Source: an uncultured Gammaproteobacteria bacterium
GTDB lineage: Bacteria; Pseudomonadota; Gammaproteobacteria; Steroidobacterales; Rariloculaceae
Assembly: GCA_963741255.1 (NCBI GenBank)
Contig: CAVUHM010000012.1
Span: 6,957 to 70,956 of the forward strand
Direction of reading: 5' to 3'
Length of the DNA stretch: 64,000 nt
Part shown: positions 1,921-31,986 of the stretch, piece after piece
How the letters are laid out: the number at the start of each line of letters is the position of its first letter
How positions within the stretch are numbered: the first letter of the stretch is position 1
Program-made: the position numbers and the translations under genes
Notes under the pieces: generated by a model
What the model was told of the DNA's origin: nothing
What the model saw: the letters and a program-made list of their open reading frames with translations, nothing else
Databases searched by the model: none

Positions 1921-2493
1921 TCAGCCGAACAGGCGGTGCAGGTCGACGGCTACTCCGGAGAGCGCGGATACGTCGAGCTCTGCGCTGAGATCGGGCTCAT
2001 CGACGAGCGTGTACGAACCCTGCTGCGGAGCGCGATGACGGACGAGCCGCCGGCCACGAAGGTCCACGAGCCACATTTCTGGGATTCCGTGAAGTGCGTA
2101 GAGAGACACCTTCGTGTCCCGGTCGAACCGCAGCGACGTGTCGGCAACCTCGATGATGAGCAGGACATCGGCGGACCGCGGGTGGTGCTCGCTGTAGAAG
2201 TCTTCGCGACGCCGCAGTAGCGCGAGGTCGGGCTGCGGCTCGGAGATCTCGCTCAAGCGCACGGGATTCTGGACACGGACTGAGGCTCTTTCATCCACCA
2301 CGCGCGCGAGCGCATCGATCAGGCGATCCACGGTGGCGGCGTGCAAGCTCCCGGGCGGCGCCATGTCGATGATGTCGCCGTCGATCAGCTCGACGGGAGC
2401 ATCGGGCGCAAGGATGCCGACTTCCGCCATGCGGTAGTAATCGGCCACGGTGAGGCGATGGCGACGGGGCAGATCTGCAGCGGCGTGCGACAT
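1921..2493 (-). CDS. Uma2 family endonuclease (DUF820)
   Basis: 190-aa ORF. It has the typical Uma2 layout (LTVADYYRM...ELIDGDII...PDLALL...LLIIEVADTS...K..LYA..GIPE.WLVDL). Confidence 0.8.
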   Translation of the reverse strand: MSHAAADLPRRHRLTVADYYRMAEVGILAPDAPVELIDGDIIDMAPPGSLHAATVDRLIDALARVVDERASVRVQNPVRLSEISEPQPDLALLRRREDFYSEHHPRSADVLLIIEVADTSLRFDRDTKVSLYALHGIPEMWLVDLRGRRLVRHRAPQQGSYTLVDEPDLSAELDVSALSGVAVDLHRLFG

Positions 2494-2609
2494 GGTTTCA
2501 CTATAGGCCGTGGCGGAGTGCGAGTGAACGGGGATTCACCGTAACGGTCCGCCGCGCCCCGAAGGCGAGACGCGAAACTGGGCTCAATGCAGCGATTCCG
2601 CCGTCGCGC

Positions 2610-2963
2610 TTAGCTCGCCGGCTCGTACAAGCCGACGACGGCTTTGAAGCTGCGCTCGACCCGCTGCATCTCGTCCGCCGTGAGGCGAGTCAGCGGCCCC
2701 TTGATGAGCCGTTGCCGATCCAGCGTTCGCGGTTGCTCCGTCATGACCTGACACGGCTGCTCGAGGTCGTCCCGTTGCGGGATCGTCACGTGCAGCGGCT
2801 CCTTCGACGGCCGCACTTGAGTGGTGAGAGGCAGAACGACGATCGTCGGCTCTCGCTGTGCGATCAGGAAATCCGCCTGCATGATCAGCACGGGCCGCAC
2901 CTTGCCGATCTCCGCGCCGCGATTCGGGTTGAGATTGCCGAGCCAGATCTCGCCGCGTCTCAT
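2610..2963 (-). CDS. mazF: Type II toxin, MazF/PemK family endoribonuclease
   Basis: 117-aa ORF starting MRRGEIWLGNLNPNRGAEIGKVRPVLIMQ, a PemK/MazF N-terminal signature. It overlaps the upstream antitoxin gene by 4 nt. Confidence 0.85.
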   Translation of the reverse strand: MRRGEIWLGNLNPNRGAEIGKVRPVLIMQADFLIAQREPTIVVLPLTTQVRPSKEPLHVTIPQRDDLEQPCQVMTEQPRTLDRQRLIKGPLTRLTADEMQRVERSFKAVVGLYEPAS

Positions 2964-3271
2964 CGACGCGGCTTCCGCTTGCGCGTCGTCCGGTACGACG
3001 CCTTGCGTTCTTGGACGCCGAGATTTTCACCCAGCGCTAACGCCTCGTTGTCCGTGCTCAGGGCTTCCTTCGCGACGGCGAGCGCCTCCTCGTCGCCGCG
3101 CGCTCTCGCGGCCCTCGCGATCTCGCCGTGGAAGCGCTCGCGCTCGAGGCGCTCGAGGTAATCGATGATCGCGTCTCGCGCGAGCTCCGACTTGGGAAGC
3201 TCCAGGCGATCGGCCTCGCGGGCAAGTCGCGCCTCTACGTCGTCTGGCAAACGGATGCTTACAAGCGGCAT
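2960..3271 (-). CDS. Ribbon-helix-helix (CopG-like) antitoxin paired with MazF
   Basis: 103-aa ORF with an RHH-like N-terminus (VSIRLPDDVEARLAREADRLELPKSELARDAIIDYLERLE). It overlaps mazF in an ATGA-type junction. Confidence 0.75.
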   Translation of the reverse strand: MPLVSIRLPDDVEARLAREADRLELPKSELARDAIIDYLERLERERFHGEIARAARARGDEEALAVAKEALSTDNEALALGENLGVQERKASYRTTRKRKPRR

Positions 3272-3393
3272 GACGGTTCGTATGACGATTTGTGTGACAA
3301 ACTAGTATACGACCCCTCCCCTCGCCCTGGCCAGTCGGAACGGCGCCGATTCGCTCTTGACCTGCCAAAAGCACAGGGCGCTAGACTCGTGAC

Positions 3394-3951
3394 ATGAAAC
3401 CGCTGAAGAAGAACGCGACTTACGACGACCTGCGCGAAGTGCCGGACCATTTCGTCGCCGAAATGTTCAGCGGCGACTTGTACGCATTCCCACGGCCGGC
3501 GCTTCCGCACGCACGCGCCGCAAGCGTGCTCGGCGGAATGCTGATGGGTCCATTCGATCAGGGCCGCAACGGCCCCGGCGGCTGGGTGATCTTGGACGAG
3601 CCGGAGCTGCACTTCGGCGACGACGTGCTCGTGCCGGATCTCGCGGGCTGGCGCCGCACGCGCCTGCCGGCGGTGCCGGCGGATGCGTATCTCACGCTCG
3701 CGCCGGATTGGGTGTGCGAGGTGTTGTCGGCATCCACCGAGAAAATCGATCGAGGCGCGAAGCTCCGGATCTACGCGCGCGAAGGAGTCGCGTACGCGTG
3801 GCTCATCGACCCGTTGCGGCAAACGCTCGAGGTGCTCGCGCTCGACGAGCGCAAGCGATGGGCTCCGCTTGGCGTGCTCGAGGGTCGTGACAACGTCCGC
3901 GCGGCGCCATTCGACGCGATCGAGCTAGAGCTTGGGAGCCTTTGGATCTGA
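3394..3951 (+). CDS. Uma2 family endonuclease (DUF820)
   Basis: 185-aa ORF with Uma2 motifs (VPDLAGW...APDWVCEVLSAST...D...K..IYAREGVAYAWLIDP). Confidence 0.8.
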   Translation: MKPLKKNATYDDLREVPDHFVAEMFSGDLYAFPRPALPHARAASVLGGMLMGPFDQGRNGPGGWVILDEPELHFGDDVLVPDLAGWRRTRLPAVPADAYLTLAPDWVCEVLSASTEKIDRGAKLRIYAREGVAYAWLIDPLRQTLEVLALDERKRWAPLGVLEGRDNVRAAPFDAIELELGSLWI

Positions 3952-3957
3952 CGGCGC

Positions 3958-5256
3958 TCAGTTCGCGGGCTCGATCCGCAGCACCGCGCCCTCGACTTCC
4001 GCGGTCAGCACGTACAGCAAACCGTCGGGTCCCTCGCGCACGTCGCGGATGCGCTGATTCAGCTCGCGCAGCAGCGTCTCGCGGCGGATCTCTTCCCAAC
4101 GGTCGTTGAACTCGATGCGCTGCAGCTGGCCCGTGCGCGGCACCTCGCCTTCGCGGAGCCCGCCGACGAACGCATTGCGGCGCCAGCCCGTGAACACGTC
4201 GCCCTGATAGAACGTCATGCCCGTGACCGCGATCGACGGCACCCAAAACACGAGCGGCTGCACCGTGCCTTCGAGCGTCGGGTTCGGCGACACACGCGGT
4301 CCGTTGTACACGCGCCCGTAGCTGACGAGCGGCCAGCCGTAGTTGCCGCCCTTCTGCAAGATGTTGATCTCGTCGCCGCCGTTCGGGCCCTGCTCCGTCG
4401 CCCACAGCTCGCCGGTCCACGGATTCAGCACCATCGAATGACCGTTGCGATGCCCGAGCGTCCAGATCGCGGGCAAGTAGCGCGAGTCGTTCACGAACGG
4501 GTTGTCGTTCGGAACGGTGCCGTCGTCGCGCAAGCGAATTGTTTTTCCGGCGTAGTCCTTCGGATCCTGCGAGCGCACGACGTCGGGCCCGACACCCGGC
4601 GCGCTGATCGTCATGTGCAGCATGCCGTCCGCCGCGAAACCGATCCGCGAGCCTTCCGTGCCGGTCGTGCCGCTCGTGAAGATGTCGCGCACGTCGACGA
4701 GCGCATCGTTCTCCCAGCGACCGCGCGCGATCATCGTTTCGCCCATGTTCTCGCCGGCCGGCCGGTGATACGACAAATACACGAAGCTGTTGTCCGCGAA
4801 ACTCGGGTGCAGCACGACGTCCATGAGTCCCTGCAATCCGCCCGTGCGCACCGTCGGCACGCCTTGGACCGGATCCTGCTGGAACACGCCGTTCTTGATC
4901 AGCCGCAGCCGGCCGGGCCGCTCGGTGACGAGCATGTCGCCGCCCGGCAGAAACGCGATCGACCACGGTTGCTCGAGACCGCGCGCGACGACCACGACGC
5001 GCAGGTTGCGATGCTCCGGTCGCACGGACTCGACGAGGAACGGCCCGGCGCCGAGCGGCGGCGACGGCCAACCGGTGCCGGGCGGAATGCCGGTGATCGC
5101 ACCGGGCACCTTGGCGGGATCGAGCGGCCACACCGACGGCGGCTGCGCGTGCCCGACCGCGATCGTAAACGCGAGCACGGCGGCCGCGGCGGCGCAGCGA
5201 ATCAAAGAATGACGTACAGCGGCCGTACCTGCACAGCGGATCAGAGCGTGACGCAT
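3958..5256 (-). CDS. PQQ-dependent sugar dehydrogenase (soluble aldose/sorbosone dehydrogenase family)
   Basis: ORF 3958..5445. The internal ATG at 5254-5256 is preceded by GGGGGGAA and followed by a signal peptide. The body has typical YliI-family blocks (PWSIAFLPGG..LVTER.GRLR, LGHRN, GGDEIN....GGNYGWP). Confidence 0.85.
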   Translation of the reverse strand: MRHALIRCAGTAAVRHSLIRCAAAAAVLAFTIAVGHAQPPSVWPLDPAKVPGAITGIPPGTGWPSPPLGAGPFLVESVRPEHRNLRVVVVARGLEQPWSIAFLPGGDMLVTERPGRLRLIKNGVFQQDPVQGVPTVRTGGLQGLMDVVLHPSFADNSFVYLSYHRPAGENMGETMIARGRWENDALVDVRDIFTSGTTGTEGSRIGFAADGMLHMTISAPGVGPDVVRSQDPKDYAGKTIRLRDDGTVPNDNPFVNDSRYLPAIWTLGHRNGHSMVLNPWTGELWATEQGPNGGDEINILQKGGNYGWPLVSYGRVYNGPRVSPNPTLEGTVQPLVFWVPSIAVTGMTFYQGDVFTGWRRNAFVGGLREGEVPRTGQLQRIEFNDRWEEIRRETLLRELNQRIRDVREGPDGLLYVLTAEVEGAVLRIEPAN

Positions 5257-5486
5257 CGAGATTCCCCCCAACTCATCGGGTCGTGATCGTGGCTGCCCGC
5301 CGGCCCGACGCGGCGATGTCGAAGCGTAACCCGGAAGGACCCGCTGCTCGATATGTCCCTCGCGCAGGCGTGACAAGTAACTTGTCAGACCCGGCGGTTT
5401 TGACAAGTTGGTTGTCACGAGCCCCGGGGAGAGTCCTACACACACGGACCGTCCCGGAGCGGCGCTGGCACGAACGTTGCTCGTCG

Positions 5487-5948
5487 ATGGGGATGGAACC
5501 GTTCGATGACCTCCTGATTCAAGCCGTGAAAGCCGCGGGCTACTACGTCGCGCTGATCGTCCTCGTGCGCATGGCCGGCAAACGCCTGGCTGGACAGACG
5601 ACGACGTTCGACCTGCTGGTGCTGATCACGCTCGGCGTCGTGATGCAGGAAGCCGCACTCGCCGAAGGCGCCGGCAATGCCGCAGCCTTCGTCGTCACCG
5701 TGTTCGCGTTGCACCTGTTGAACGCATGGCTCTGCACGCGCTCGAGCGCAGTTCGTCACCTACTCCGGGGTAAGCCGCGCACACTCGTCCGCGATGGGCA
5801 GGTCGTCGAGCAAGCGCTCACGCTCGAAGGAATCACGCAGGCCGAGTTGCTGGCCGGCCTGCGCAAGCTTGGCTACGAGCGCGTCGACGACGTACGCCTC
5901 GCCGTGCTCGAGGAAACCGGCCACATCTCGGCCGTCGGGCGCGATTGA
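5487..5948 (+). CDS. DUF421 (YetF-like) membrane protein
   Basis: This is the tail of ORF 5283..5948 from ATG 5487. It has two or three N-terminal hydrophobic helices and a DUF421-type C-terminal domain (LVRDGQVVEQALTLEGITQAELLAGLRKLGYERVDDVRLAVLEETGHISAV). Confidence 0.75.
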   Translation: MGMEPFDDLLIQAVKAAGYYVALIVLVRMAGKRLAGQTTTFDLLVLITLGVVMQEAALAEGAGNAAAFVVTVFALHLLNAWLCTRSSAVRHLLRGKPRTLVRDGQVVEQALTLEGITQAELLAGLRKLGYERVDDVRLAVLEETGHISAVGRD

Positions 5949-8795: not shown

Positions 8796-8859
8796 GGTTG
8801 ATCCCTGCACCGTTACCGATAGGTCATGGGATACGGTCGGAGGGGGACGGTTGCAACGC

Positions 8860-8908
8860 AACCGAAGTGCCGGTGTTTCGGTTGAACCGAAACCGTAACA
8901 CCGGCACC
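8860..8908. repeat. REP-like nested palindrome, copy a
   Basis: The sequence is aaccgaaGTGCCGGTGTTTCGGTTGAACCGAAACCGTAACACCGGCAC. It lies between the VOC gene stop and the permease start, and shares arms with copies at 11978, 20649, 30338 and 31915. Confidence 0.85.
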
Positions 8909-8914
8909 TACGCG

Positions 8915-11886: not shown

Positions 11887-11977
11887 GGTGACCCTCCTGG
11901 GTTTCTAGTGTCGTATCGAACCATAGTCGAACGACCCTGCGCCAAATCGACAACGAACGGTTCAGGGCGAGGCAAGA

Positions 11978-12049
11978 GGTGCCGGTGTTACGGTTCGGTT
12001 CAACCGAAGTGCCGGTGCTTCGGCTGAACCGAACCGTAACACCGGCACC
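11978..12049. repeat. REP-like nested palindrome, copy b (long form)
   Basis: The sequence is GGTGCCGGTGTTACGGTTCGGTTCAACCGAAGTGCCGGTGCTTCGGCTGAACCGAACCGTAACACCGGCACC. It has 24-bp outer arms plus an inner CCGAAG/CTTCGG stem, and lies in a divergent intergenic region. Confidence 0.85.
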
Positions 12050-12099
12050 GCTGGACGCTCGTCGGGCGCAAGGCAGCTGCGACGCAAAGGACCGCACCG

Positions 12100-19763: not shown

Positions 19764-20646
19764 ATGCCTCAGAAACCCCAGAAACCAGTTCCGAAGTCCG
19801 TCGCCCCCGATGCGCTGCGCGTGGACCCCGGCGATGCGCGTCTTTACGCGCGCCGCCAACAGGAGGCGAAGCGCGTCGGGCCGTTCGCGAAGTTCTTGCG
19901 CTACGCCGCGATCCTGCTGGTGGTCGCAGGTGTTTTCGCCGCGGTTTGGAATTACGAGACGTTGATGCAGATCCGGCTCGATTTCTCGGAGCTGACGGGC
20001 TTGTTCAAGGGCGCGCCGGCCGCGCCGGGCAGCCCCGCTGCCGACGGCGAGCTCGAAACCGAGGTCGTCGAGGGGGCCGGCGTCGCCGGCGTCGGGCTGC
20101 CTTCGAGTATCGACGGCGAACCGAACGAGCCCGAGACCGCGGCCGCAGCGCCAACCACAGTCGAATCGGCCGCAACCGGATCCGCTGCAGCGTGAGACGG
20201 TCGCCGCGGCAACGCCGCCGCCCGCGCCCTCGGGCGAGACGCCGGAGCGCGCAGCGCCTGAACCGCCGCCGCCCCCGGTCGAAGAGCCGCCGGCCGGACC
20301 CGAGCTCTTCGGCTTCGGCCTGCTGACTCGAATGAACGTCTCCGAGGCCGACGCGAGCGCGGCCGTGCTCGTCGTGCGCGAAGGCGGCCGGCGCGGCGTA
20401 TCGGCTATCACTTGGTGGACGACCGACGACACCGCGAGAGCCGGCAGTGACTACGTCAGCTTCGACCGGCGCGTGGAGCGCTTCGCGGTCGGCGAGCAGA
20501 ACCGCACGCTGCGCGTCCCGATCGTCGGCGACCGCAACGTCGAAGGGCCGGAGACGTTCTACGTGCACATCGCGCCCGGCGACGACACGAGCTCCGGCCG
20601 CGAGTCGGTCGCGCGGATCGAGGTCGTGATCAACGACGACGACTGA
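19764..20646 (+). pseudogene. Membrane-anchored Calx-beta domain protein (frameshift near 20150-20195)
   Basis: ATG 19764 gives a TM helix (FLRYAAILLVVAGVFAAVW) and a Pro/Ala linker. The frame of ORF 20332..20646 is open upstream through PPPPPVEEPPAGPELFGFG. That ORF carries a Calx-beta pattern (VSAITWWTTDDTARAGSDYV...RTLRVPIVGDRNVEGPETFYVHI). Confidence 0.65.
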
Positions 20647-20648
20647 TT

Positions 20649-20697
20649 GGTGCCGGTGTTTCGGTTTCGGTTGAACCGTAACACCGGCACTTCGGTT
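20649..20697. repeat. REP-like nested palindrome, copy c
   Basis: The sequence is GGTGCCGGTGTTTCGGTTTCGGTTGAACCGTAACACCGGCACTTCGGTT. It starts 3 nt after the Calx-beta gene stop. Confidence 0.85.
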
Positions 20698-22979: not shown

Positions 22980-23037
22980 AGGCCGGCGGCCGCGCCAAAA
23001 GCCGTGAACCAGTTCTCACCGGGCTCGCGGGGGGCTT

Positions 23038-23060
23038 TATTACACAGGCCCAGTGTAATA
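23038..23060. promoter_or_regulatory. Candidate VapB operator palindrome
   Basis: TATTACACaggcccaGTGTAATA ends 8 nt before the vapB ATG at 23068. Confidence 0.5.
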
Positions 23061-23067
23061 TCCGGCC

Positions 23068-23310
23068 ATGCGAAACATCACGATCACGCTCGACGAGAAG
23101 ATCGCGGCTTGGGCTCGTCACCGCGCAGCCGAGCGCGACGTGAGCCTGTCCCGTTTCATCGGTGAGTTGCTCGAGACCACGATGCGCGAGTCTCGTGAGT
23201 ACCGCACGGCGATGCAGTCTTTCCTCGCGCGCCAACCGACCGTTCTGAACGAGCAAGGCGCGCAATATCCGCGTCGCGAAGAGCTGCATGACCGCGACGA
23301 TCTTCGTTGA
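23068..23310 (+). CDS. vapB: Type II antitoxin (RHH/VapB-like)
   Basis: 80-aa ORF starting MRNITITLDEKIAAWARHRAAERDVSLSRFIGELL, which is RHH-like. It overlaps the PIN gene by 23 nt. Confidence 0.75.
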   Translation: MRNITITLDEKIAAWARHRAAERDVSLSRFIGELLETTMRESREYRTAMQSFLARQPTVLNEQGAQYPRREELHDRDDLR

Positions 23311-23800
23311 CACGAACGTGCTGGTGTATGCACGTGACGCCGGCGAGCCGGTGAAGCAACGCATCGCTGCGGAATGGCTTCAAGAGCTCTGGGTCGAGCA
23401 GCGCGGCCGCACGAGCATTCAGGTGCTGACGGAGTACTACACGACCGTCACTCGCAAGCTGCGGCCGGGCCTCGCGGCCGACGCTGCGTGGGACGACGTC
23501 AACGCGTTGTTCGCATGGGAACCGCAGGCGACCGATCGTGCCGTGATCGTGCGTGCACGGGAGATCGAGCGGCTCCACTCGCTGTCGTGGTGGGACTCGA
23601 TGATCGTTGCGGCCGCGCAGATCCAGGACTGCGCGGTATTGCTGTCGGAAGATCTGCAACACGGCTGGACGTGCGGCTCCGTCACGGTACGCAACCCGTT
23701 CGCGGAACGCATCGAGGAAACTCGCGCGAGCTACGCGGCGCGGCACGTTCCGGTGTCGCGGCACCGACGGCGCGGCAGGCCCAAGGCAGCCGCCGGTTAG
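23288..23800 (+). CDS. vapC: PIN-domain toxin (VapC family)
   Basis: 170-aa ORF. The N-terminus IFVDTNVLVYARD has the first acidic PIN residue, and later acidic positions follow (LTEYY, WWDSMIVAAAQ, LLSEDLQHG). Confidence 0.8.
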   Translation: MTATIFVDTNVLVYARDAGEPVKQRIAAEWLQELWVEQRGRTSIQVLTEYYTTVTRKLRPGLAADAAWDDVNALFAWEPQATDRAVIVRAREIERLHSLSWWDSMIVAAAQIQDCAVLLSEDLQHGWTCGSVTVRNPFAERIEETRASYAARHVPVSRHRRRGRPKAAAG

Positions 23801-23811
23801 GATCCGCGGCG

Positions 23812-24732
23812 CTACGCCGCGTCGATGAACGCCCGCATGCGTCTGCGCGCGGTCCTATCCGGCACCGGCGCGAACGCGGCAAGCGCGTTTTCGGCCATGT
23901 GCTCCGCGCTCGTGGTCTCGGTCAGCACGCACGTGATGCTTAAGTTCGTGAAGATGTACTGCAGCGAGAATTGAGCCCAGCTCGTGCACTCGAATTCCGC
24001 TGCCCAGTCCGGCAGCGGCACGTTCTCGAGGCGCTCGAAGTACGCGCCGTTCATGAATGGCCGGCTGATCAGCACTGCGATGCCACGGTCGGCGCAGAGC
24101 GGCAGCAAGCGTCGCTCCGCCTCGCGCTCCGTGACCGAGTAGTTGATCTCGACGAAATCCGGTCGCTCGCGCTGCACGAACGCCTCGAGTCTGTCGTACA
24201 GCGCGGCCTGCGCTGCCGTCACGCCGATATAGCGCGCGCGCCCGTCGTCCTTGAACGCGCGCAGATTCGGCCACTGCGCATCGAGGTCGATCAGGCTGCC
24301 GACGTTCACGAGATCGATCGTCTCGCGTCGATACAGGCGCAGCGTGCGCTCGAAATGCGCGCGCCCGGCCTCCGCGCCTTGCTGCTCCAAGTTGATCGTG
24401 ACGAACAAGCGTTCGCGCAGGTTCGGCGCGCTGATGATCTCGCCGAACGCGGCATCGTTCGTATCGCTGCGCGGCCACGTGTCGATCACGCGGCCGCCGT
24501 GCTCGACGAGCGTGCGGATCACGGCAGCGACGGGCTCCGGCCCACGCTCCGCGATCGCGGTGACGGGGCGCGTCGAGCCCAAGCCCACGATCGGCAGCGT
24601 CTCGCTCGTGCCGGGGATCGTGCGCACCGGCATTGCGCGCGGTTGGGCGACGCTGCCGCGCGTGGCTGTCGTCGCCAGGGTCGCCAGAGCTGTAAGCGCG
24701 AGGAAATCGCGGCGGGTCTGTGTCGATTGCAT
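23812..24732 (-). CDS. Aldo/keto reductase with TAT signal
   Basis: This is the tail of ORF 23812..25068 from ATG 24732. It has the TAT signal MQSTQTRRDFLALTALATLA and an AKR-like body. It is a paralogue of 30387..31313. Confidence 0.8.
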   Translation of the reverse strand: MQSTQTRRDFLALTALATLATTATRGSVAQPRAMPVRTIPGTSETLPIVGLGSTRPVTAIAERGPEPVAAVIRTLVEHGGRVIDTWPRSDTNDAAFGEIISAPNLRERLFVTINLEQQGAEAGRAHFERTLRLYRRETIDLVNVGSLIDLDAQWPNLRAFKDDGRARYIGVTAAQAALYDRLEAFVQRERPDFVEINYSVTEREAERRLLPLCADRGIAVLISRPFMNGAYFERLENVPLPDWAAEFECTSWAQFSLQYIFTNLSITCVLTETTSAEHMAENALAAFAPVPDRTARRRMRAFIDAA

Positions 24733-24770
24733 AGGCCAAGGATACCGTGCCGGTCCGCTCGCGGCAGCGG

Positions 24771-27429
24771 TCAGGTTCGAGATAGATAGTCCCAGAGCGC
24801 GCGGCCGGCGCCGTCGTGGACATCCGTGTTCTCGCCGAACACGCGCCGCGCGACGGCCAATCCCAAGCTGCGATAGCTTTCCCACTGGGCCTGATCGAAA
24901 AACTGATCCGTGGTCGGCTCCTGCGGAAATGCCGGATGCGTCGCGGCGTACTCGTGCACGTCGGCCGGTGCGGACGCGATCACGCGCGGCTTCAAGACGA
25001 CGATGCGACAAAGGCGCGTCGCATGCTCGACGTCGCCTGCGGCGTACACGTTCAGCAGCACTGCGCACTTGTCGTCGCGGCGCATTGGATCACCGCTCGC
25101 GGCCCTCGCGGCGAGCAGCTCCGGCGTCGCGAAAACTTTGCCGAGCTCCGTGTCCTTCACGATGTCGTCGTCGACCTCGACCTCGACGTCGTGGTCGATC
25201 CGCGCCAAGCGCACGAGGTTCGCGAGGTCCTCGAACTTGTACTCGAGGTCGCAGCCGTCATCGCAGACGACGATCAACTTGATGTTCCGGCCGCGCCGAA
25301 GCAGCTCGTAGAGCCCTGTGTTCTCGAAGTGCCCGCCGTCGGACAAGTACTGCCACTCGCGATACAAGCCGTGGAATTTCGCCATGAGCTCGTAGAACAG
25401 GAATACCTGCGTCTTGAACAAGCCCTTGAGCGCCCGCTCGAACCAGCCCGAGCCGTCGTTGCCATAGCCCGACGACCACCACGTGCCGAGCCGCACGTTC
25501 GCGAGGCCGAGCGCGATCGAGACCCCGAGGCTCGTGCTGCGCCCCAAACCCGTCGTGAACGCGGCGCCCGAGGTGCCGATCCATTGGCCGATCGAGAGTT
25601 TTTGGCTGCCGAGCCCGCCGCCGATGCCCTTGTCCAGCTGGTCACGAAAGTCGTAGTGCCAGCGGTCGATCGAGAACCCCGTCGGCAAGATCGCCATCGG
25701 CCGGCCCTTGCGGTCACGCTGTACGAGCTGCTCGGCCGGATCGATGGTTTGGTTCACGGTGACGTTGACGATGTGCAACGGCGCGAGCGTGGCGTAGTAC
25801 TTGTCGCGCGTGAGCTGATCGCCGCTAACCGGCTCCGCGGCGCTCAAGCGCTTGCGATCGCTTTCTTTCTCGATCGGCTTGAAGCGTTCACCGTTCGTGG
25901 CTCCCAGGTACGCGCGCGTCAAACGCGCGCTGTACAGCGATTGCAGGCTCGACAGATTCAGGAATCCCGAGAACCGGCCGGACACGAACGCGAGCAGCAG
26001 CATGGCTGCGAGTGCGATCGCGAGCAGCTCCACCTGAGGGCCGAGCCACGTCGAACAGCTCTGGCCGAGGCACCTCGCCGAACCAGATCAACGCGTGAAA
26101 GCCGAGGCCCCACAGCGTGGCGATCACGAGGAACAACAAGAAGCCCGCGATGCCGGCGATCAGGCCGATCGGAATCTTCGCGAGCAGGCTCGGCACCGCA
26201 TCGCGGTCCGCGAGCCGCGCCAGCGAGCGGAATAGCCAGACACCGCCGCCGGCCAACGCCGCCGGGGACACGATCGTGGAAAGATCCGGGTCGCGCGACC
26301 ACGCGAGATACAGCGACTGGCTCGACGTGTCGACGAGCGCGAGCACGGAGAGGGCAATCAGCAGCTGCAGGCCCGTCGCGAGATGGCGCGTCAGGACCAC
26401 GCGGTGATACGACACGGTCCGTCCCGACGAGCACGTCAGCACGTGCCACGCGAAACCGAGCGCGGTCAGCGCGGCGGCCGCGAACGGCACGACGACGTGC
26501 GGCAGCGGCGCCGTGCGAGCGGCCGCGGCGAGGCCGACGCCGACGGAGATCGCGACGATCGCGAGCGCGGCGAGCGCGGCCTCCGAGAAAATGCGCGCCG
26601 GGCTCGAGTCGTCCTTGCTTCGCTTGGGATGCGTGAGCCAATACGCGATGCTGAGCGGCGCGAGCCAGACCACGAGCACGAGCAATGGCGCGGCGAAGAT
26701 GGGGCTCCACCACACGGTCACGCCACCGGCGGCGGTCGCGTCGCCGAGCAACCATTGCTCGAAACCCGCGTACCCGGGCCACGTAGCTGCGACCGCGAAG
26801 CGCAGGAACAGGATCAACGCGAACGCGGCCGCGATGAACGTTCCGAGCACGTATTGCAGCGAGAACCAATTCCGGATCGCGAGCGCGATCGCGTAGTTCA
26901 TGTCGCCGGCGCTCGTGGGCGCCAGATAGCGGCCGTTCTCGCGCAACCACGCAAGCGCGGATCTCCGCACATGCGGGCGGTCGAGCACGTCCGGCATGCG
27001 GATGCGCCCTGGCGGATCCTGCTGCAGCACGCGATACGCGTCCTCGGCTGCCGCACGCTCGTCGGTGCCCTTCCAAAGCCGGCTCGGCACGAACAAGCTG
27101 CACAGAAACGCGCCGATGTAGCCGCCGCCGCTCACGGTGGACAAGTAATCGAATCGACCGAGCAGCGACTTGTGCGGTTCTCTGCGTATCTCATCGGGAG
27201 TCGCGGCACCGGTGTCGGGTGCCGCTGCGTTCGCCATGCCTTGCAACGCGCCGAGCGCGAACGTCGCGCTGCGAATGCCGCCACCCGACAGTGCGAGACC
27301 GAACGTGGGCGCTACGTCGTCGACGGTGTCGAGCGTCTCGCGCCGCTTCGCGACGCGCGCGGCTTCGTCCTTGAACGTCTTGGTCAGATCGCGGTTCGTC
27401 GTTTCGTCGGCCATGGCGGAGCGATTCAC
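24771..27429 (-). pseudogene. Patatin-like phospholipase split by a large polytopic membrane insertion (one frameshift near 26040-26050)
   Basis: ORF 25888..27429 carries SGGGIRS (oxyanion hole) and STVSGGGY (Ser motif), followed by 7-9 hydrophobic helices. ORF 24771..26033 carries SDGGHFENTG (Asp motif). The pieces join at ...FDVA|GPQVELLAIALAAM. The start is GTG 27429 or ATG 27414. Confidence 0.75.
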
Positions 27430-27430
27430 C

Positions 27431-28189
27431 TCACAGCGTCGCGGCGCCGCGGCGCGGCTTCACGAAAAAGCGCTCCGCGAGATAGCGGCGATCGTAGTTG
27501 CGTACGTCCATGTGAATCCAGGTCGGCGCGATGTCCTTGGGCTCGAGCGCCTTGCGATTGCTCGCGGTCCAGCCGATCTGGAAATTCGCGAGCTCGACGA
27601 GCACGCCGCGCGCCCTCTCGCAGCGAAGCGCATCGTCGCGCTTATCCTCTCCCGCCGCCAGCGGAAAATCGGCGTCGATGGCCTTGCCCATGTGGTTCGT
27701 GGACGTGCGGCCCTTCTGCTCGTTGCTCGTTGAGCAGCGGTAGCCGCTCGAAACCAGCGGCGCCGGAAAACCGGCGCGCTGTAGATGAAAGGCCGCCGCT
27801 CGAAAGCTGTGCAAGATCGCCTTGTGCATGCCGGGATACTCGTACCGGTAGTTCTGCTCGGTCTCGTTACCGGGCATGTACTGGCCTTTGAAACGCTTGC
27901 GGCCGAACCCTTCGCAGCTGCCGCACGGGCAGCGCAGTTTGTCGACCGCGATCGGAAACTCCGCCTCGAACCGCAGCAGCGCGTCGAGCGTCGGTCGGTC
28001 GACCCGACCGGTGGGACTCGGCAAGCGCATGTAGTCGCGCTGAAAGCAGACGACTTGGAGCTCGGTGCCGGGACCGAACTTTCCGTCCCACAGCGTGCCG
28101 CGGAATCCGGCCAGCCGCAGTTGCAGCTCGACGACCGCCGCGCCTTTGTCTCCACGCTGTAGAGGAACCTTGCCGAAGGCCATGGGCAT
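27431..28189 (-). CDS. Peptidoglycan-binding domain + peptidase M15A (endolysin-like zinc D-Ala-D-Ala peptidase), no signal peptide
   Basis: 252-aa ORF with a PG_binding_1-like N-terminus (LQRGDKGAAVVELQLRLAGF...FGPGTELQVVCFQ) and M15A motifs (SGYRC...NHMGKAIDADF...WIHMDVR). Its stop at 27431-27433 abuts the patatin start. Confidence 0.8.
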   Translation of the reverse strand: MPMAFGKVPLQRGDKGAAVVELQLRLAGFRGTLWDGKFGPGTELQVVCFQRDYMRLPSPTGRVDRPTLDALLRFEAEFPIAVDKLRCPCGSCEGFGRKRFKGQYMPGNETEQNYRYEYPGMHKAILHSFRAAAFHLQRAGFPAPLVSSGYRCSTSNEQKGRTSTNHMGKAIDADFPLAAGEDKRDDALRCERARGVLVELANFQIGWTASNRKALEPKDIAPTWIHMDVRNYDRRYLAERFFVKPRRGAATL

Positions 28190-28336
28190 CTCCCATCGCT
28201 TGGGCGCAGGCGCCGGAGTCGTCGTTGTTGTAGATCCGGCGCCTGTTCGTCGATCAACCTAACAGAGCTCGCGGCGCCAATCTGTCAACCACCGGACACT
28301 TACGCGTAGACTCCCTGCATCGACGCTGGGGGGCGT

Positions 28337-30325
28337 ATGCAAACGACGATTCGAACAATCGCGCTGGCGCGAGCGCTGGTGTTTTGCGCCGGGCTCGGCG
28401 TTGCAGCGGCGAATCAAGCCGGTGCGCAGCCGAGCGGACCCGAGCGTCCGTACACGACCTGGCGCAGCTACGGCGGCGGCCCTCACTCCTCGCAGTACTC
28501 GGCGCTCGATCAGGTCGACAAGTCGAATGTCGCGAAGCTTACGGTCGTGTGGGAGTTCCCGGTCGGCGAGCGCAGCTTCGTGTTCAATCCGATCGTCGTC
28601 GACGACACGATGTACGTGCTGGCGCGCGAGAACGAGATCGTGGCGCTCGACGCCGCGACCGGCGCCGAGAAATGGTCGCACCCTCACGAGGGCGGCGTGA
28701 ACGGACGCGGCATCAACTACTGGCAGAGCCGCGACGGCAGCGATCGCCGGCTCGTGTACCTGAATTCCGGCTTCGTGACGGCCCTGAATGCGCGCACGGG
28801 CGAAACGATCGCGAGCTTCGGCGACAACGGCCGCGTCGATCTTCGCACCGCACTCGCCGCGAGCGGCTGGGACATCACGAACGTGCGGCCGCTCGGCAAC
28901 AGCAACCCGGGCCGCATCTACGACAACCTGATGATCGTGTCGTTGCCGGCGCAAGGCGCCGGATACGCGTCGACGCCCGGCAACGTGCAGGCCTACGACG
29001 TCGTCACGGGCAAGCACGTCTGGACGTTCCACGTGATTCCGCACCCCGGCGAGTTCGGCTACGACACGTGGCCGAAGGACGCGTACAAGACTGCCGGCGG
29101 CGTGCACAACTGGGCCGAGTTCACGGTCGACGAGGCGAACGGCATCGCATTCATTCCGTTCGGCACCGCGCGTTACGACTTCTACGGCGGCGATCGCGCC
29201 GGCAACAACCTCTATCGCGAACTCGCTCGTCGCGCTCGACGCGCGGACCGGCAAGCGGCTCTGGCATCAGCAGCTCGTGCACCACGACCTGTGGGACTAC
29301 GATCTACCGCAGGCGCCGAAGCTGCTGACGATTAGGCAGGACGGCCGCGCGCGCGACGTCGTCGCACAAGCGACGAAGCACGGCTTCGTGTTCGTGTTCG
29401 ATCGCAAGACCGGCGAGCCGATCTGGCCGATCGAGGAGCGTCCCGTGCCGCAATCGGACGTGCCCGGTGAGCACACCTCGCCGACGCAGCCGTACCCGAC
29501 GAAACCGGCGCCGTTCGCGACGCAGACGTTCACGGAGCGCGACATCAATCCGCACCTGCCCGCGGCCGAGCAGGAGATCCTCCGGCAGAAGCTCCGCACC
29601 TCGCGCAACGACGGGCTTGTTCACGCCGCCGAGCTTCGAGGGCTCGATCGGCATGCCGGGTCACAACGGCGGAGCGAACTGGGCCGGCTCGGCCGTCGAT
29701 CCGATCAACGGCGAGTTCTATATCGTGTCGAAGAACCTGCCCGTGATGCTGCGCATGGAGCTCACGAACGAGGAGCCGTCGGCGCGCACGGTCCAGGGGC
29801 CCGTCGTCTCGCGCGAGGAAGCCGCCGCGGCGCGCGCGGCCGCGCAGGCCGCCGCCGCGCAAGGCCCGGTGCGCTACCAGGCGCCGTACGACTTCATGCT
29901 GAGCCCGACGAACGGAATGAGTCCGATGGGGCCGCCGTTCTCGCATCTGACCGCCTACGACTTGAACACCGGCGAGATCAAGTGGCGCGTGCCGAACGGC
30001 GGCACGGCGGGCATCGGTGCCGACGTCGGCGCGCATTTCCCGCGCGGCGCACCGCTCGTGACGGCCGGCGGCCTGCTGTTCGTCGCCACTGCGCAAGACC
30101 GCCAGCTGCGCGCTTACGATCGCGACAACGGCAAAGTGCTGTGGTCGTACACGCTGCCGGGCGGGTCGGAAGGCATTCCCGACCACCTACGAGCTTGGCG
30201 GCCGGCAGTACCTCGCGGTACCGGTGGCAGCCGGCGCGGGCTTGTTCGCGCCGCGCCTGAACCCGGCGCCGAGCTACCGCCGCTCGACGCGCTCGTACGT
30301 CGTGTTCGCGCTACCCAGCGGCTAG
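28337..30325 (+). pseudogene. PQQ-dependent dehydrogenase (quinoprotein, 8-bladed propeller), exported (3 frame changes)
   Basis: The pieces come from ORFs 28337..29335, 29277..30260 and 29467..30390 plus a terminal frame ending ...VVFALPSG* at TAG 30323-30325. The junctions at about 29216, 29618 and 30181 each fit a 1-nt insertion. Confidence 0.8.
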
Positions 30326-30337
30326 GCACAAGCCTTG

Positions 30338-30384
30338 GTGCCGGTGTTACGGTTTCGGTTCAACCGAACCGTAACGCCGGCACC
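30338..30384. repeat. REP-like nested palindrome, copy d
   Basis: The sequence is GGTGCCGGTGTTACGGTTTCGGTTCAACCGAACCGTAACGCCGGCACC. It lies between two convergent gene ends. Confidence 0.85.
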
Positions 30385-30386
30385 TC

Positions 30387-31313
30387 TTAGGTGATGCTGT
30401 CGAAGAACTCTTCCTGACGCCGCCGCTGCGCGGCGTCGGGTAATCGCCCGAGCGCGGCACCGAAGTTGTCGTCCACGTACTGGACGCGCCGCGTGCCGGG
30501 AATCGCACACGTGACGCCCGGGTGCGAAATGATGTACTTCAAGAAGAACTGCGGCCAGCTCGTGGCATCGAACTCGGCAGCCCATTCCGGCAACGGACGA
30601 TCGCCGACCACGTCGATGTGCGACGACTGTCCACCGCCGAACGGCACGTTGATCATGACCGCGATGCCGCGATCGATCGCGGTCGGTAGCAACCGCTCCG
30701 CGGCGAGGCGGTCGCCGAGCGAGTAGTTGAACTGCACGATCTCGACGTCGTTGTTCCGCATGAACGCTTCCATCTGGTCGAACTGGTTGTGCGTCGAGAT
30801 CGAGGCGCCGAGGTATCGAAACTTCCCTTGCCGCTGCCACTCGCGCATCACCGGCAGCTCAGTCTCCGCGTTCACGAGGTTGTGCACGAGCATCGCGTCG
30901 ATCACGTCGGTCTTGAGACGCGTCAACGCGTTCTGCAGGCCGGTCTCGCCCGCACTTGGCCGCGGATGTCGGTCTTCGTCGCGAGGAACAATTGGTCGCG
31001 AATGCCGAGGCTCTGTGCGAGATCGCCGATCACGACTTCCGACGTGCCGTAGATCATCGCCGTGTCCATGACCTTGCCGCCGACCTCGACGAACCGCGCC
31101 ATCGTGTCGCGCAACGGTGCGCGCTCTTCCTCGCCCGTGCCGACGCCATAGCGATTCGTGCCGATGCCGATCGGCGGTAGCTTCTCGCCGCTCTTCGGAA
31201 TCGTTTTCTGAATCAGCTCGCGTGATTGCGCGAAGCCCAGCGCCCGTGCCGAAGACTGTTGCCGCACCGAGCACCGCTCCGGCCTCGAGTGCCTGTCGTC
31301 GCGTAATCGTCAT
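30387..31313 (-). pseudogene. Aldo/keto reductase with TAT signal (2 frame changes)
   Basis: The TAT N-terminus is MTITRRQALEAGAVLGAATVF. The middle part lies in ORF 30923..31267 (IGIGTNRYGVG...) and the C-terminal part in ORF 30387..31313 (DVIDAMLVHNL...). It is a paralogue of 23812..24732. Confidence 0.75.
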
Positions 31314-31914: not shown

Positions 31915-31986
31915 GGTGCCGGTGTTGCGGTTCGGTCGAACCGAAGTGCCGGTGTTTCGGTTCAACCGAACCGTAACACCGGCACC
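31915..31986. repeat. REP-like nested palindrome, copy e (long form)
   Basis: The sequence is GGTGCCGGTGTTGCGGTTCGGTCGAACCGAAGTGCCGGTGTTTCGGTTCAACCGAACCGTAACACCGGCACC. It lies between convergent gene ends. Confidence 0.85.

Follow-up and report, generated by a model that had tools for sequence, protein, structure and literature searches.

A signal-less M15-like hydrolase gene next to a membrane-split cPLA2/patatin-type lipase gene in a gammaproteobacterial contig: a pairing seen in a narrow lineage

In a stretch of 64,000 nucleotides (hereafter the window; contig CAVUHM010000012.1, positions 6,957 to 70,956, assembly GCA_963741255.1) from an uncultured gammaproteobacterium of the Rariloculaceae, two abutting genes occupy positions 24771-28189 of the minus strand. 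The upstream gene encodes a protein that resembles M15 peptidases and is predicted to cleave peptidoglycan, and the downstream gene a lipase of about 880 residues and of the cPLA2/patatin type, the catalytic residues of which, Ser100 and Asp697, lie on either side of a membrane insertion. A reading of this DNA from its letters alone (the sequence-only reading) had proposed that the two genes constitute a dedicated lysis, abortive-infection or effector module. On balance, we are inclined to regard them as independent genes whose union in an operon is confined to this narrow lineage, and not as a new two-gene lysis or defense system.

Conservation of the pairing

The evidence that carries this view is comparative. 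Among the matches listed, lipase homologues with 32-52% identity were examined at 80 genome loci, including Cupriavidus, Pseudomonas, Roseateles, Polaromonas and many metagenome-assembled genomes, as well as at two loci of the plasmid collection, and at none of these 82 loci does a homologue of the M15-like gene lie within 10 kb, nor is any neighbor of the lipase gene conserved across genera. The proposal of a dedicated two-gene module thus fails the test of synteny. Moreover, the contig of the closest lipase representative (P0001, 77% identical) has the same synteny with DUF4870 and pyrroloquinoline quinone (PQQ) dehydrogenase genes as the window but contains no M15 gene and instead a 71-residue open reading frame (ORF) in that place, and the contigs of two other closer representatives (P0003 and P0005) also contain no M15 gene.

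The pairing was seen only in two loci, L083 (M15-like protein 90%, lipase 89% identical) and L084 (M15-like protein 80% identical). In L083 the M15-lipase adjacency is kept with equal spacing at the junction, while in L084 an ORF of 226 residues is placed between the M15 and the lipase gene, with gaps of 24 and 13 nucleotides. Where the M15 homologue is 72% identical or less, its neighbors are different. In L085 and L086 (72%) the gene that follows, 19 bp past the M15 gene, encodes a polytopic membrane protein of 1534 residues instead of the lipase; in L087 (67%) other genes are the neighbors; the homologue in L088 (61%) has an N-terminal extension and is accompanied by a recombinase and a lipoprotein; and that in L089 (33%) adjoins DUF4280-NlpC/P60 and M23 proteins. 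We infer from this distribution that the lipase gene is probably the older resident of the locus and that the M15 gene would have arrived, or have been lost, in particular clades.

Gene layout and transcription

The following features, all on the minus strand, were assigned in the region of the two genes:

27431..28183, minus strand: M15-like gene, 250 residues, product lacking a signal peptide and composed of PG_binding_1 and predicted M15-like zinc peptidase domains (ORF, Pfam, homologue starts)
27977..28144, minus strand: PG_binding_1 domain, residues 16-71 of the 252-residue ORF (Pfam, E 2.7e-7)
27434..27967, minus strand: putative catalytic domain with the cysteine cluster C87-x-C89-xx-C92 and C152, YEYPGMH, SGYRC, NHMGKAID (H166, D172) and WIHMD (H226, D228) (alignment, motif check)
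27415..27433, minus strand: gene junction, M15 stop TGA 27431-27433, a GAGGTG Shine-Dalgarno sequence overlapping this TGA, then the lipase ATG 27414 (sequence; equal spacing in L083)
26045..27414, minus strand: lipase gene, frame 1, N-terminal half-domain and most of the membrane insertion (ORFs, Pfam, alignment)
25959..26907, minus strand: membrane insertion of about 315 residues with about eight helices, residues ~175-490 (hydropathy, AlphaFold2 helices 174-485, full-length homologues)
26037..26044, minus strand: site of the frameshift, one additional base (not present in L083 or in contigs of the metagenome runs X1, X3 and X4)
24771..26036, minus strand: lipase gene, frame 2, last membrane helix and C-terminal half-domain with Asp697, stop 24771-24773 (ORFs, homologues)

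The ORF map confirms that the two genes abut on the same strand with the M15 stop codon TGA at 27431-27433, as first described. The ORF of the M15-like protein extends from 27431 to 28189 (252 residues), and the lipase is read as two ORFs, 25888-27429 (513 residues) and 24771-26033 (420 residues). Since every homologue begins with MAFG and a GGGAG sequence is found 6 nucleotides ahead of ATG 28183, this ATG is the likely start and the M15 product probably has 250 residues. For the lipase both GTG 27429 and ATG 27414 had been considered as start codons; ATG 27414, preceded by GAGGTG, is kept in L083 and is the likely start, whereas GTG 27429 is out of frame there.

The M15 stop and the lipase ATG are separated by 16 nucleotides. 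Given this short gap, the Shine-Dalgarno sequence placed over the upstream stop codon, and the absence of any terminator-like site from 23700 to 28450 of the minus strand, the M15 and lipase genes are probably transcribed together, perhaps also with an aldo/keto reductase gene that is situated 30 nucleotides beyond the lipase gene. Metatranscriptome contigs cover the lipase gene thinly and in part, and none clearly covers the M15 gene, which is too sparse to bear on co-transcription. The local GC content had been described as somewhat lower than that of the surroundings, but it amounts to 0.663 for the pair as compared to 0.659 for the window. A compositionally foreign island was ruled out, as GC content and GC content at third codon positions (GC3) of the pair equal the host background. 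A megablast search of the region against plasmids and scans of the window for Rfam families and tRNAs yielded no match.

The frame change within the lipase gene

A single frame change at about 26040-26050 had been noted in the lipase gene, and one extra base at about 26037-26044 is indeed present in the window sequence. The GC3 frame plot displays a coding signal of about 0.9 in both frames with a switch at about 26040. L083 is collinear with the window from 36251 to 20761 at about 88% nucleotide identity and encodes the lipase as a single ORF of 875 residues; compared with it, the window has one base more, at about 26037 within GGCCC[T]CAGG. Contigs of three independent metagenome runs, from soil, estuary and bog, cover the site, and all of them have one base fewer at 26041-26044. 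Further indels of one nucleotide are located at 29215, 29613-29616, 30178, 30270, 30285, 30951 and 31232 (within 28337-31313), where they break the PQQ dehydrogenase and aldo/keto reductase genes several times each.

How is the frame change to be understood? The lipase could truly be frameshifted in this strain and the pair a decaying remnant, as the sequence as given does contain the frame change and neighboring genes are frameshifted as well. Yet every indel, including the seven in the neighboring genes, is absent from L083, where those genes are intact, and from the runs X1, X3 and X4. Moreover, in both halves of the lipase gene the catalytic residues are all retained and the GC3 codon bias is strong, and such a density of single-nucleotide indels, at least eight within about 5 kb of coding sequence that is conserved in other respects, is typical of assembly error. 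We therefore consider a decaying remnant highly improbable. Because the extra base is missing in L083 and in three metagenomes and the window carries many indels of this kind, the frameshift is most likely an assembly error, and the gene would be intact in nature.

A cPLA2/patatin-type lipase split by a membrane bundle

The oxyanion and serine motifs of patatins that had been recognized in the downstream product are not only present but invariant in an alignment of 31 family members. The oxyanion loop GGGIR is encoded at 27271-27285 (G49-G51 and R53 invariant), the nucleophile elbow at 27124-27138 (Ser100 codon 27130-27132) and the catalytic aspartate motif LSDGG at 25332-25346 (Asp697 codon 25338-25340), and altogether S48-G51, R53, S100-G102 and D697-G699 do not vary. 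The elbow is a variant, T-V-S-G-G, in which the first glycine of G-x-S-x-G is replaced by threonine. Residues 45-115 match the start of the Pfam Patatin model (PF01734), with 28.2 bits for the N-terminal ORF and 27.4 bits for the repaired protein at a threshold of 27.7 bits; only positions 1-50 of the 191 profile positions are matched, because the insertion splits the domain.

That the lipase fold is split by a polytopic membrane insertion was likewise borne out, by hydropathy, by the AlphaFold2 model (predicted local distance difference test, pLDDT, 84.6; predicted template modeling score, pTM, 0.84), in which some eight long helices fall within residues 174-485, and by intact homologues of 875-920 residues that carry the same insertion. 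An artifact of wrongly joined frames was ruled out by these intact homologues. The sequence-only reading had placed the aspartate after some 330 residues containing seven to nine helices; the number of helices holds with about eight, but Asp697 follows about 600 residues after Ser100, and the insertion alone accounts for about 315 of them. Since the number of helices is even and a signal peptide is absent, both catalytic halves are predicted to be cytoplasmic.

In Foldseek searches with the model the top PDB matches were human cPLA2 delta and alpha (5IZ5 and 1CJY; probability 1.0), followed by patatin, CapV, CapE and PlpD, the E-values being modest (8e-3) because of the insertion; a search against viral structures returned nothing relevant. 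With the cPLA2 (GIVA/GIVD)/patatin superfamily the window lipase shares the SGGGxR oxyanion loop, the serine elbow (TVSGG in the window, GLSGS in cPLA2), the aspartate in a DGG motif and a large insertion between serine and aspartate. It differs in that its insertion, which would take the place of the cPLA2 insertion, is a membrane bundle of about eight helices and not a soluble cap or lid, and in the absence of a C2 domain. Unlike ExoU the window lipase is not a secreted effector, unlike CapV it is not a defense effector activated by cyclic nucleotides and has no PADLOC match, and unlike PlpD it has no Omp85 barrel. PlaF of Pseudomonas aeruginosa has a single membrane helix and the alpha/beta-hydrolase fold, and the resemblance to it is one of function only. 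PlaF, a phospholipase A1 of the inner membrane, remodels membrane lipids (PMC9132575), and by analogy the window lipase, with its predicted function, could likewise be a phospholipase A that is anchored in the membrane, works inside the cell and attacks the cell's own glycerophospholipids.

The C-terminal half alone matched 10,024 representative clusters (clustered at 50% identity) at E<=1e-3 and 1,837 at E<=1e-30, from Pseudomonas, Cupriavidus and many other taxa. As these proteins typically have 860-930 residues and the C-terminal half matches at about positions 480-900, the two ORFs of the window represent one gene of a very large family. No experimental paper on this membrane-split lipase family was found. 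In one locus (L097) a gene for a Peptidase_S13 protein (PBP4-type DD-carboxypeptidase; 4415-5884) is situated 117 bp upstream of a 59%-identical lipase homologue on the same strand, the single case of another wall enzyme beside the lipase family.

What would such a lipase do in the cell? The lipase would be a member of a very large, uncharacterized family of inner-membrane phospholipases of about 900 residues, in which the N-terminal half with GGGxR and Ser100 and the C-terminal half with Asp697, both on the cytoplasmic side, would form a Ser-Asp active site of the cPLA2 type. The bundle of about eight helices between the two halves would hold this site against the cytoplasmic leaflet. As the family is solitary, widespread and chromosomal and is found among ordinary genes, a role in deacylation, turnover or remodeling of the cell's own membrane phospholipids is suggested.

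An endolysin-type hydrolase without export signal

The PG_binding_1-like N-terminus that had been proposed for the upstream product is supported by the Pfam match given above, and PDB profile matches of this part were the N-terminal domains of phiKZ gp144 and of the zinc D-Ala-D-Ala carboxypeptidase of Streptomyces albus G (1LBU, MEROPS M15A). The motifs that had been taken as catalytic motifs of M15A peptidases are present (SGYRC...NHMGKAID at 27674-27748, WIHMD at 27506-27520), and R151, H166-x5-D172, H226 and D228 are invariant in two alignments of 8 and 11 homologues. In the PDB profile alignment R151, H166 and D172 correspond to R138, H154 and D161 of 1LBU, which we take to be the functional arginine and zinc ligands of that enzyme. 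The profile scores for membership in the family are weak. The window copy scores 14.5-15.4 bits against Peptidase_M15_3 (PF08291; E 0.02-0.04), below the gathering threshold of 23.2 bits, although 7 of 11 homologues match this family (best E 4.5e-5) and no other family recurs. For this reason the catalytic domain is designated M15-like and divergent, and not filed as a proven member. The protein also matched phrog_894, an endolysin family of PHROGs (E 3e-4). A profile of the catalytic domain found no match among PDB sequences, and the single-sequence AlphaFold2 model (pLDDT 30) provided no usable fold.

With the 1LBU enzyme the window protein thus shares the order of an N-terminal PG_binding_1 domain and a C-terminal, in the window predicted, zinc peptidase domain, as well as the arginine of (G/S)G(F/Y)R and the His...Asp zinc ligands, which align. 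It differs from it in that only the N-terminal domain matches significantly, in the spacing of the ligands (H-x6-D in 1LBU, H-x5-D in the window family) and in the lack of a signal peptide, whereas the Streptomyces enzyme is secreted. A further difference is an additional invariant cysteine cluster together with the YEYPGMH motif. C87, C89, C92, C152 and the histidine-containing YEYPGMH are invariant in all 11 homologues, including the phage- and type VI secretion system (T6SS)-linked ones; these residues could provide a second metal site or disulfide bonds, and we know of no counterpart of such a cluster or of YEYPGMH in M15 peptidases.

The protein contains no hydrophobic N-terminus or segment, and as the longest ORF has no upstream extension there is no room for a signal peptide. 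The endolysin arrangement recognized from the sequence is borne out by this and by relatives of the same length in phage tail/lysis regions, and we infer that the product is a signal-less wall hydrolase of the endolysin type with predicted activity. Accommodated in the reading of two independent genes, it would be an orphan enzyme related to phage endolysins that has no export signal and would reach the wall only if the membrane is breached, its gene having been inserted or retained between the PQQ dehydrogenase and lipase genes in this clade. No comparative evidence was seen among the loci compared that would point to mutual dependence of hydrolase and lipase.

Phage, secretion-system and orphan relatives of the hydrolase

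In the plasmid and phage collections the M15-like family is rare, with one record in the former and two in the latter, and the entry behind the lone match among the 72,556 plasmid-collection records resembles an Acinetobacter chromosome. The closest relatives of the same length, 252 residues and 53-54% identical, are encoded on two IMG/VR contigs (L091 and L092). There an upstream gene, the product of which is a membrane protein of 173-176 residues with terminal hydrophobic segments, overlaps the M15 gene, which is followed by two unannotated ORFs and, about 1.6 kb downstream, by a tail-sheath gene (phrog_279). Judged by its gene content this setting is a phage tail/lysis region. In two viral contigs with a GC content of 28% (L093 3602-4336 and L094 8001-8735) the M15 homologue contains an in-frame TGA at a position that is tryptophan (QIGW) in all other homologues, which suggests that TGA is read as tryptophan in this phage or its host.

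In more distant relatives the M15 domain is part of larger proteins. In an Acinetobacter locus (L090) it is found within a large protein adjoining VgrG, and in L095 within a large protein with a DUF4280 N-terminus, encoded after Hcp-like and VgrG-like genes; by gene order this layout is that of T6SS cargo effectors. An identity of the Acinetobacter relative with Tae17 was ruled out, since Tae17 has different domains. Could the window protein itself be an antibacterial cargo effector of a T6SS or another contractile injection system, with the lipase gene as an unrelated neighbor? Delivery of this kind would explain the missing signal peptide, and the relatives with 31-36% identity are domains of larger proteins next to VgrG (L090), after Hcp- and VgrG-like genes (L095) or next to DUF4280-NlpC/P60 and M23 proteins (L089). 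The window protein, however, stands alone with its 250 residues and has no N-terminal domain of the PAAR, DUF4280 or MIX type, the genes near it in the window include no VgrG, Hcp, PAAR or immunity-like gene, and closer relatives of the same length (50-54%) are encoded in phage contigs. A cargo effector is therefore quite improbable.

Alternatively, the M15-like protein could be a peptidase with a housekeeping task in the cytoplasm, where, like VanX or DdpX, it would process precursors of the wall or muropeptides that are being recycled, and it would be co-expressed with the lipase for envelope turnover. This would agree with the absence of an export signal, with the chromosomal, metabolic genomic context and with the Peptidase_S13 DD-carboxypeptidase gene directly upstream of the P0003 lipase homologue. 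On the other side, PG_binding_1 targets polymeric wall material, all informative relatives occur in phage or T6SS-effector contexts, and the distribution is patchy, with one match in 72,556 plasmid-collection records and absence from the syntenic relative P0001. Such a housekeeping function is thus very unlikely.

A lysis cassette as alternative

The most far-reaching alternative is a cassette for programmed lysis or abortive infection, in which the M15-like hydrolase waits in the cytoplasm until a membrane-damaging partner opens the way to the wall and the cell lyses. The partner would be the lipase in the window, a gasdermin-like protein together with the lipase in L084, and the giant membrane protein in L085 and L086. 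Several observations are in line with this possibility: the hydrolase is of the endolysin type and has relatives in phage regions, the operon junction is tight, and the gene of the multi-helix membrane protein of 1534 residues begins 19 bp after the M15 gene in L085 and L086. Furthermore, the 226-residue ORF between the M15 and lipase genes of L084 (1454-2134) matches the PADLOC model bGSDM with E 2.8e-8 over positions 8-211 of 257, being short at its C-terminus.

The arrangement also recalls phage holin-endolysin cassettes, with which it shares a gene for a signal-less wall hydrolase beside a gene for a membrane protein, as also seen in L091 and L092, and from which it differs in the lack of phage genes around the window pair and of viral structural relatives of the lipase family. 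For bacterial gasdermin systems the likeness is limited to the bGSDM match in L084, as the window contains no such gene; in known gasdermin systems the partner is a caspase-like or subtilase-type protease and not an M15 wall hydrolase. For phage WO a patatin was proposed as the lytic enzyme in a hypothesized lytic cassette, which may be taken in favor of a lytic function, albeit that cassette comprises a patatin and a holin-like protein and no endolysin (PMC9203015).

Against a lysis cassette stand the absence of the pairing from the 82 lipase loci and from the closest syntenic relative, and the nature of the lipase family, which is huge, encoded alone and found amid metabolic genes. A PADLOC match, a sensor gene or a defense island is lacking, only about five independent M15 contexts were seen, and the gasdermin assignment is a single hidden Markov model match, with no support from Pfam, no match among PDB sequences and none in the scan of viral contigs. 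Taken together, a lysis cassette appears rather unlikely. In its general form the idea would be that signal-less M15 endolysins, domesticated on bacterial chromosomes, do the cutting of the wall in cassettes for suicide or lysis, while the membrane-breaching half is interchangeable, the window pair being a holin-free lysis device; this we also consider unlikely, and the gasdermin-like gene of L084 is the one observation that could make it worth a test at the bench.

The giant membrane protein genes (L085 1560-6164, L086 942-4049) encode many hydrophobic segments and have no informative Pfam match. In L085 a divergent gene for a class-3 lipase (1-570) is located upstream of the M15 homologue.

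The favored reading of two independent genes has points against it too. The adjacency has survived about 12% nucleotide divergence in L083 and more in L084, and the tight coupling of the genes, with 16 nucleotides between them, the Shine-Dalgarno sequence over the stop codon and no terminator, may reflect a functional link within the clade. M15 homologues outside phages repeatedly precede genes for membrane proteins, namely the gasdermin-like protein and the lipase in L084 and the 1534-residue protein in L085 and L086, which fits the need of the hydrolase for a membrane-breaching partner. As the lipase homologues among the matches listed are 32-52% identical, closer genomes with the pair may have been missed. 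Finally, the housekeeping role of the lipase family is deduced from genomic context alone.

Genomic surroundings

The neighbors of the pair in the window are genes for a molybdopterin oxidoreductase, Calx-beta, DUF975, Fic and VapBC proteins, aldo/keto reductases, a PQQ dehydrogenase and a DUF4870 protein, and no phage or T6SS genes were found around it. A defense setting, as envisaged in the sequence-only reading, did not emerge: PADLOC v2 gave no relevant match for either protein at E<=1, and no cyclase, protease, NTPase or sensor gene and no defense island is found near the pair. The same applies to the lipase family at large. The 136 flanking proteins sampled from 58 diverse loci are mostly transporters and metabolic enzymes, among them MFS, TauE, DAO, LysE and serine dehydratase, and only a handful of generic PADLOC matches were obtained.

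A few further observations concern the surroundings. The VapB-like/PIN pair (genes 23068-23800; 22993-23820) is absent from the collinear L083, which has 79 bp in that place (L083 12329-12408), and by this comparison the pair was recently inserted or deleted. Between genes, a palindromic repeat of about 72 nucleotides with the consensus GGTGCCGGTGTTACGGTTCGGTTCAACCGAAG...CTTCGGTTGAACCGAACCGTAACACCGGCACC occurs at no fewer than five sites (at least 8859-8914, 11977-12050, 20596-20697, 30337-30384 and 31915-31986), and the metagenome depth spikes at 30328-30411. Far upstream, within 1921-3951, ORF translations judged by eye contain a candidate MazF/PemK-like toxin (2610-2963) and a candidate ribbon-helix-helix antitoxin (2960-3271), flanked by two ORFs that look like Uma2-family endonucleases.

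Significance

If the pair is an operon of this lineage only, it would have little wider consequence, and both proteins would be, judged by their domains, additional members of already known protein types. The two families are nevertheless of interest in their own right. The M15-like family spans phage regions, T6SS effectors and orphan chromosomal genes and contains an unexplained invariant cysteine cluster. The membrane-split lipase family, with more than 10,000 clusters, is a candidate for the controlled turnover of the membrane lipids of the cells that encode it.

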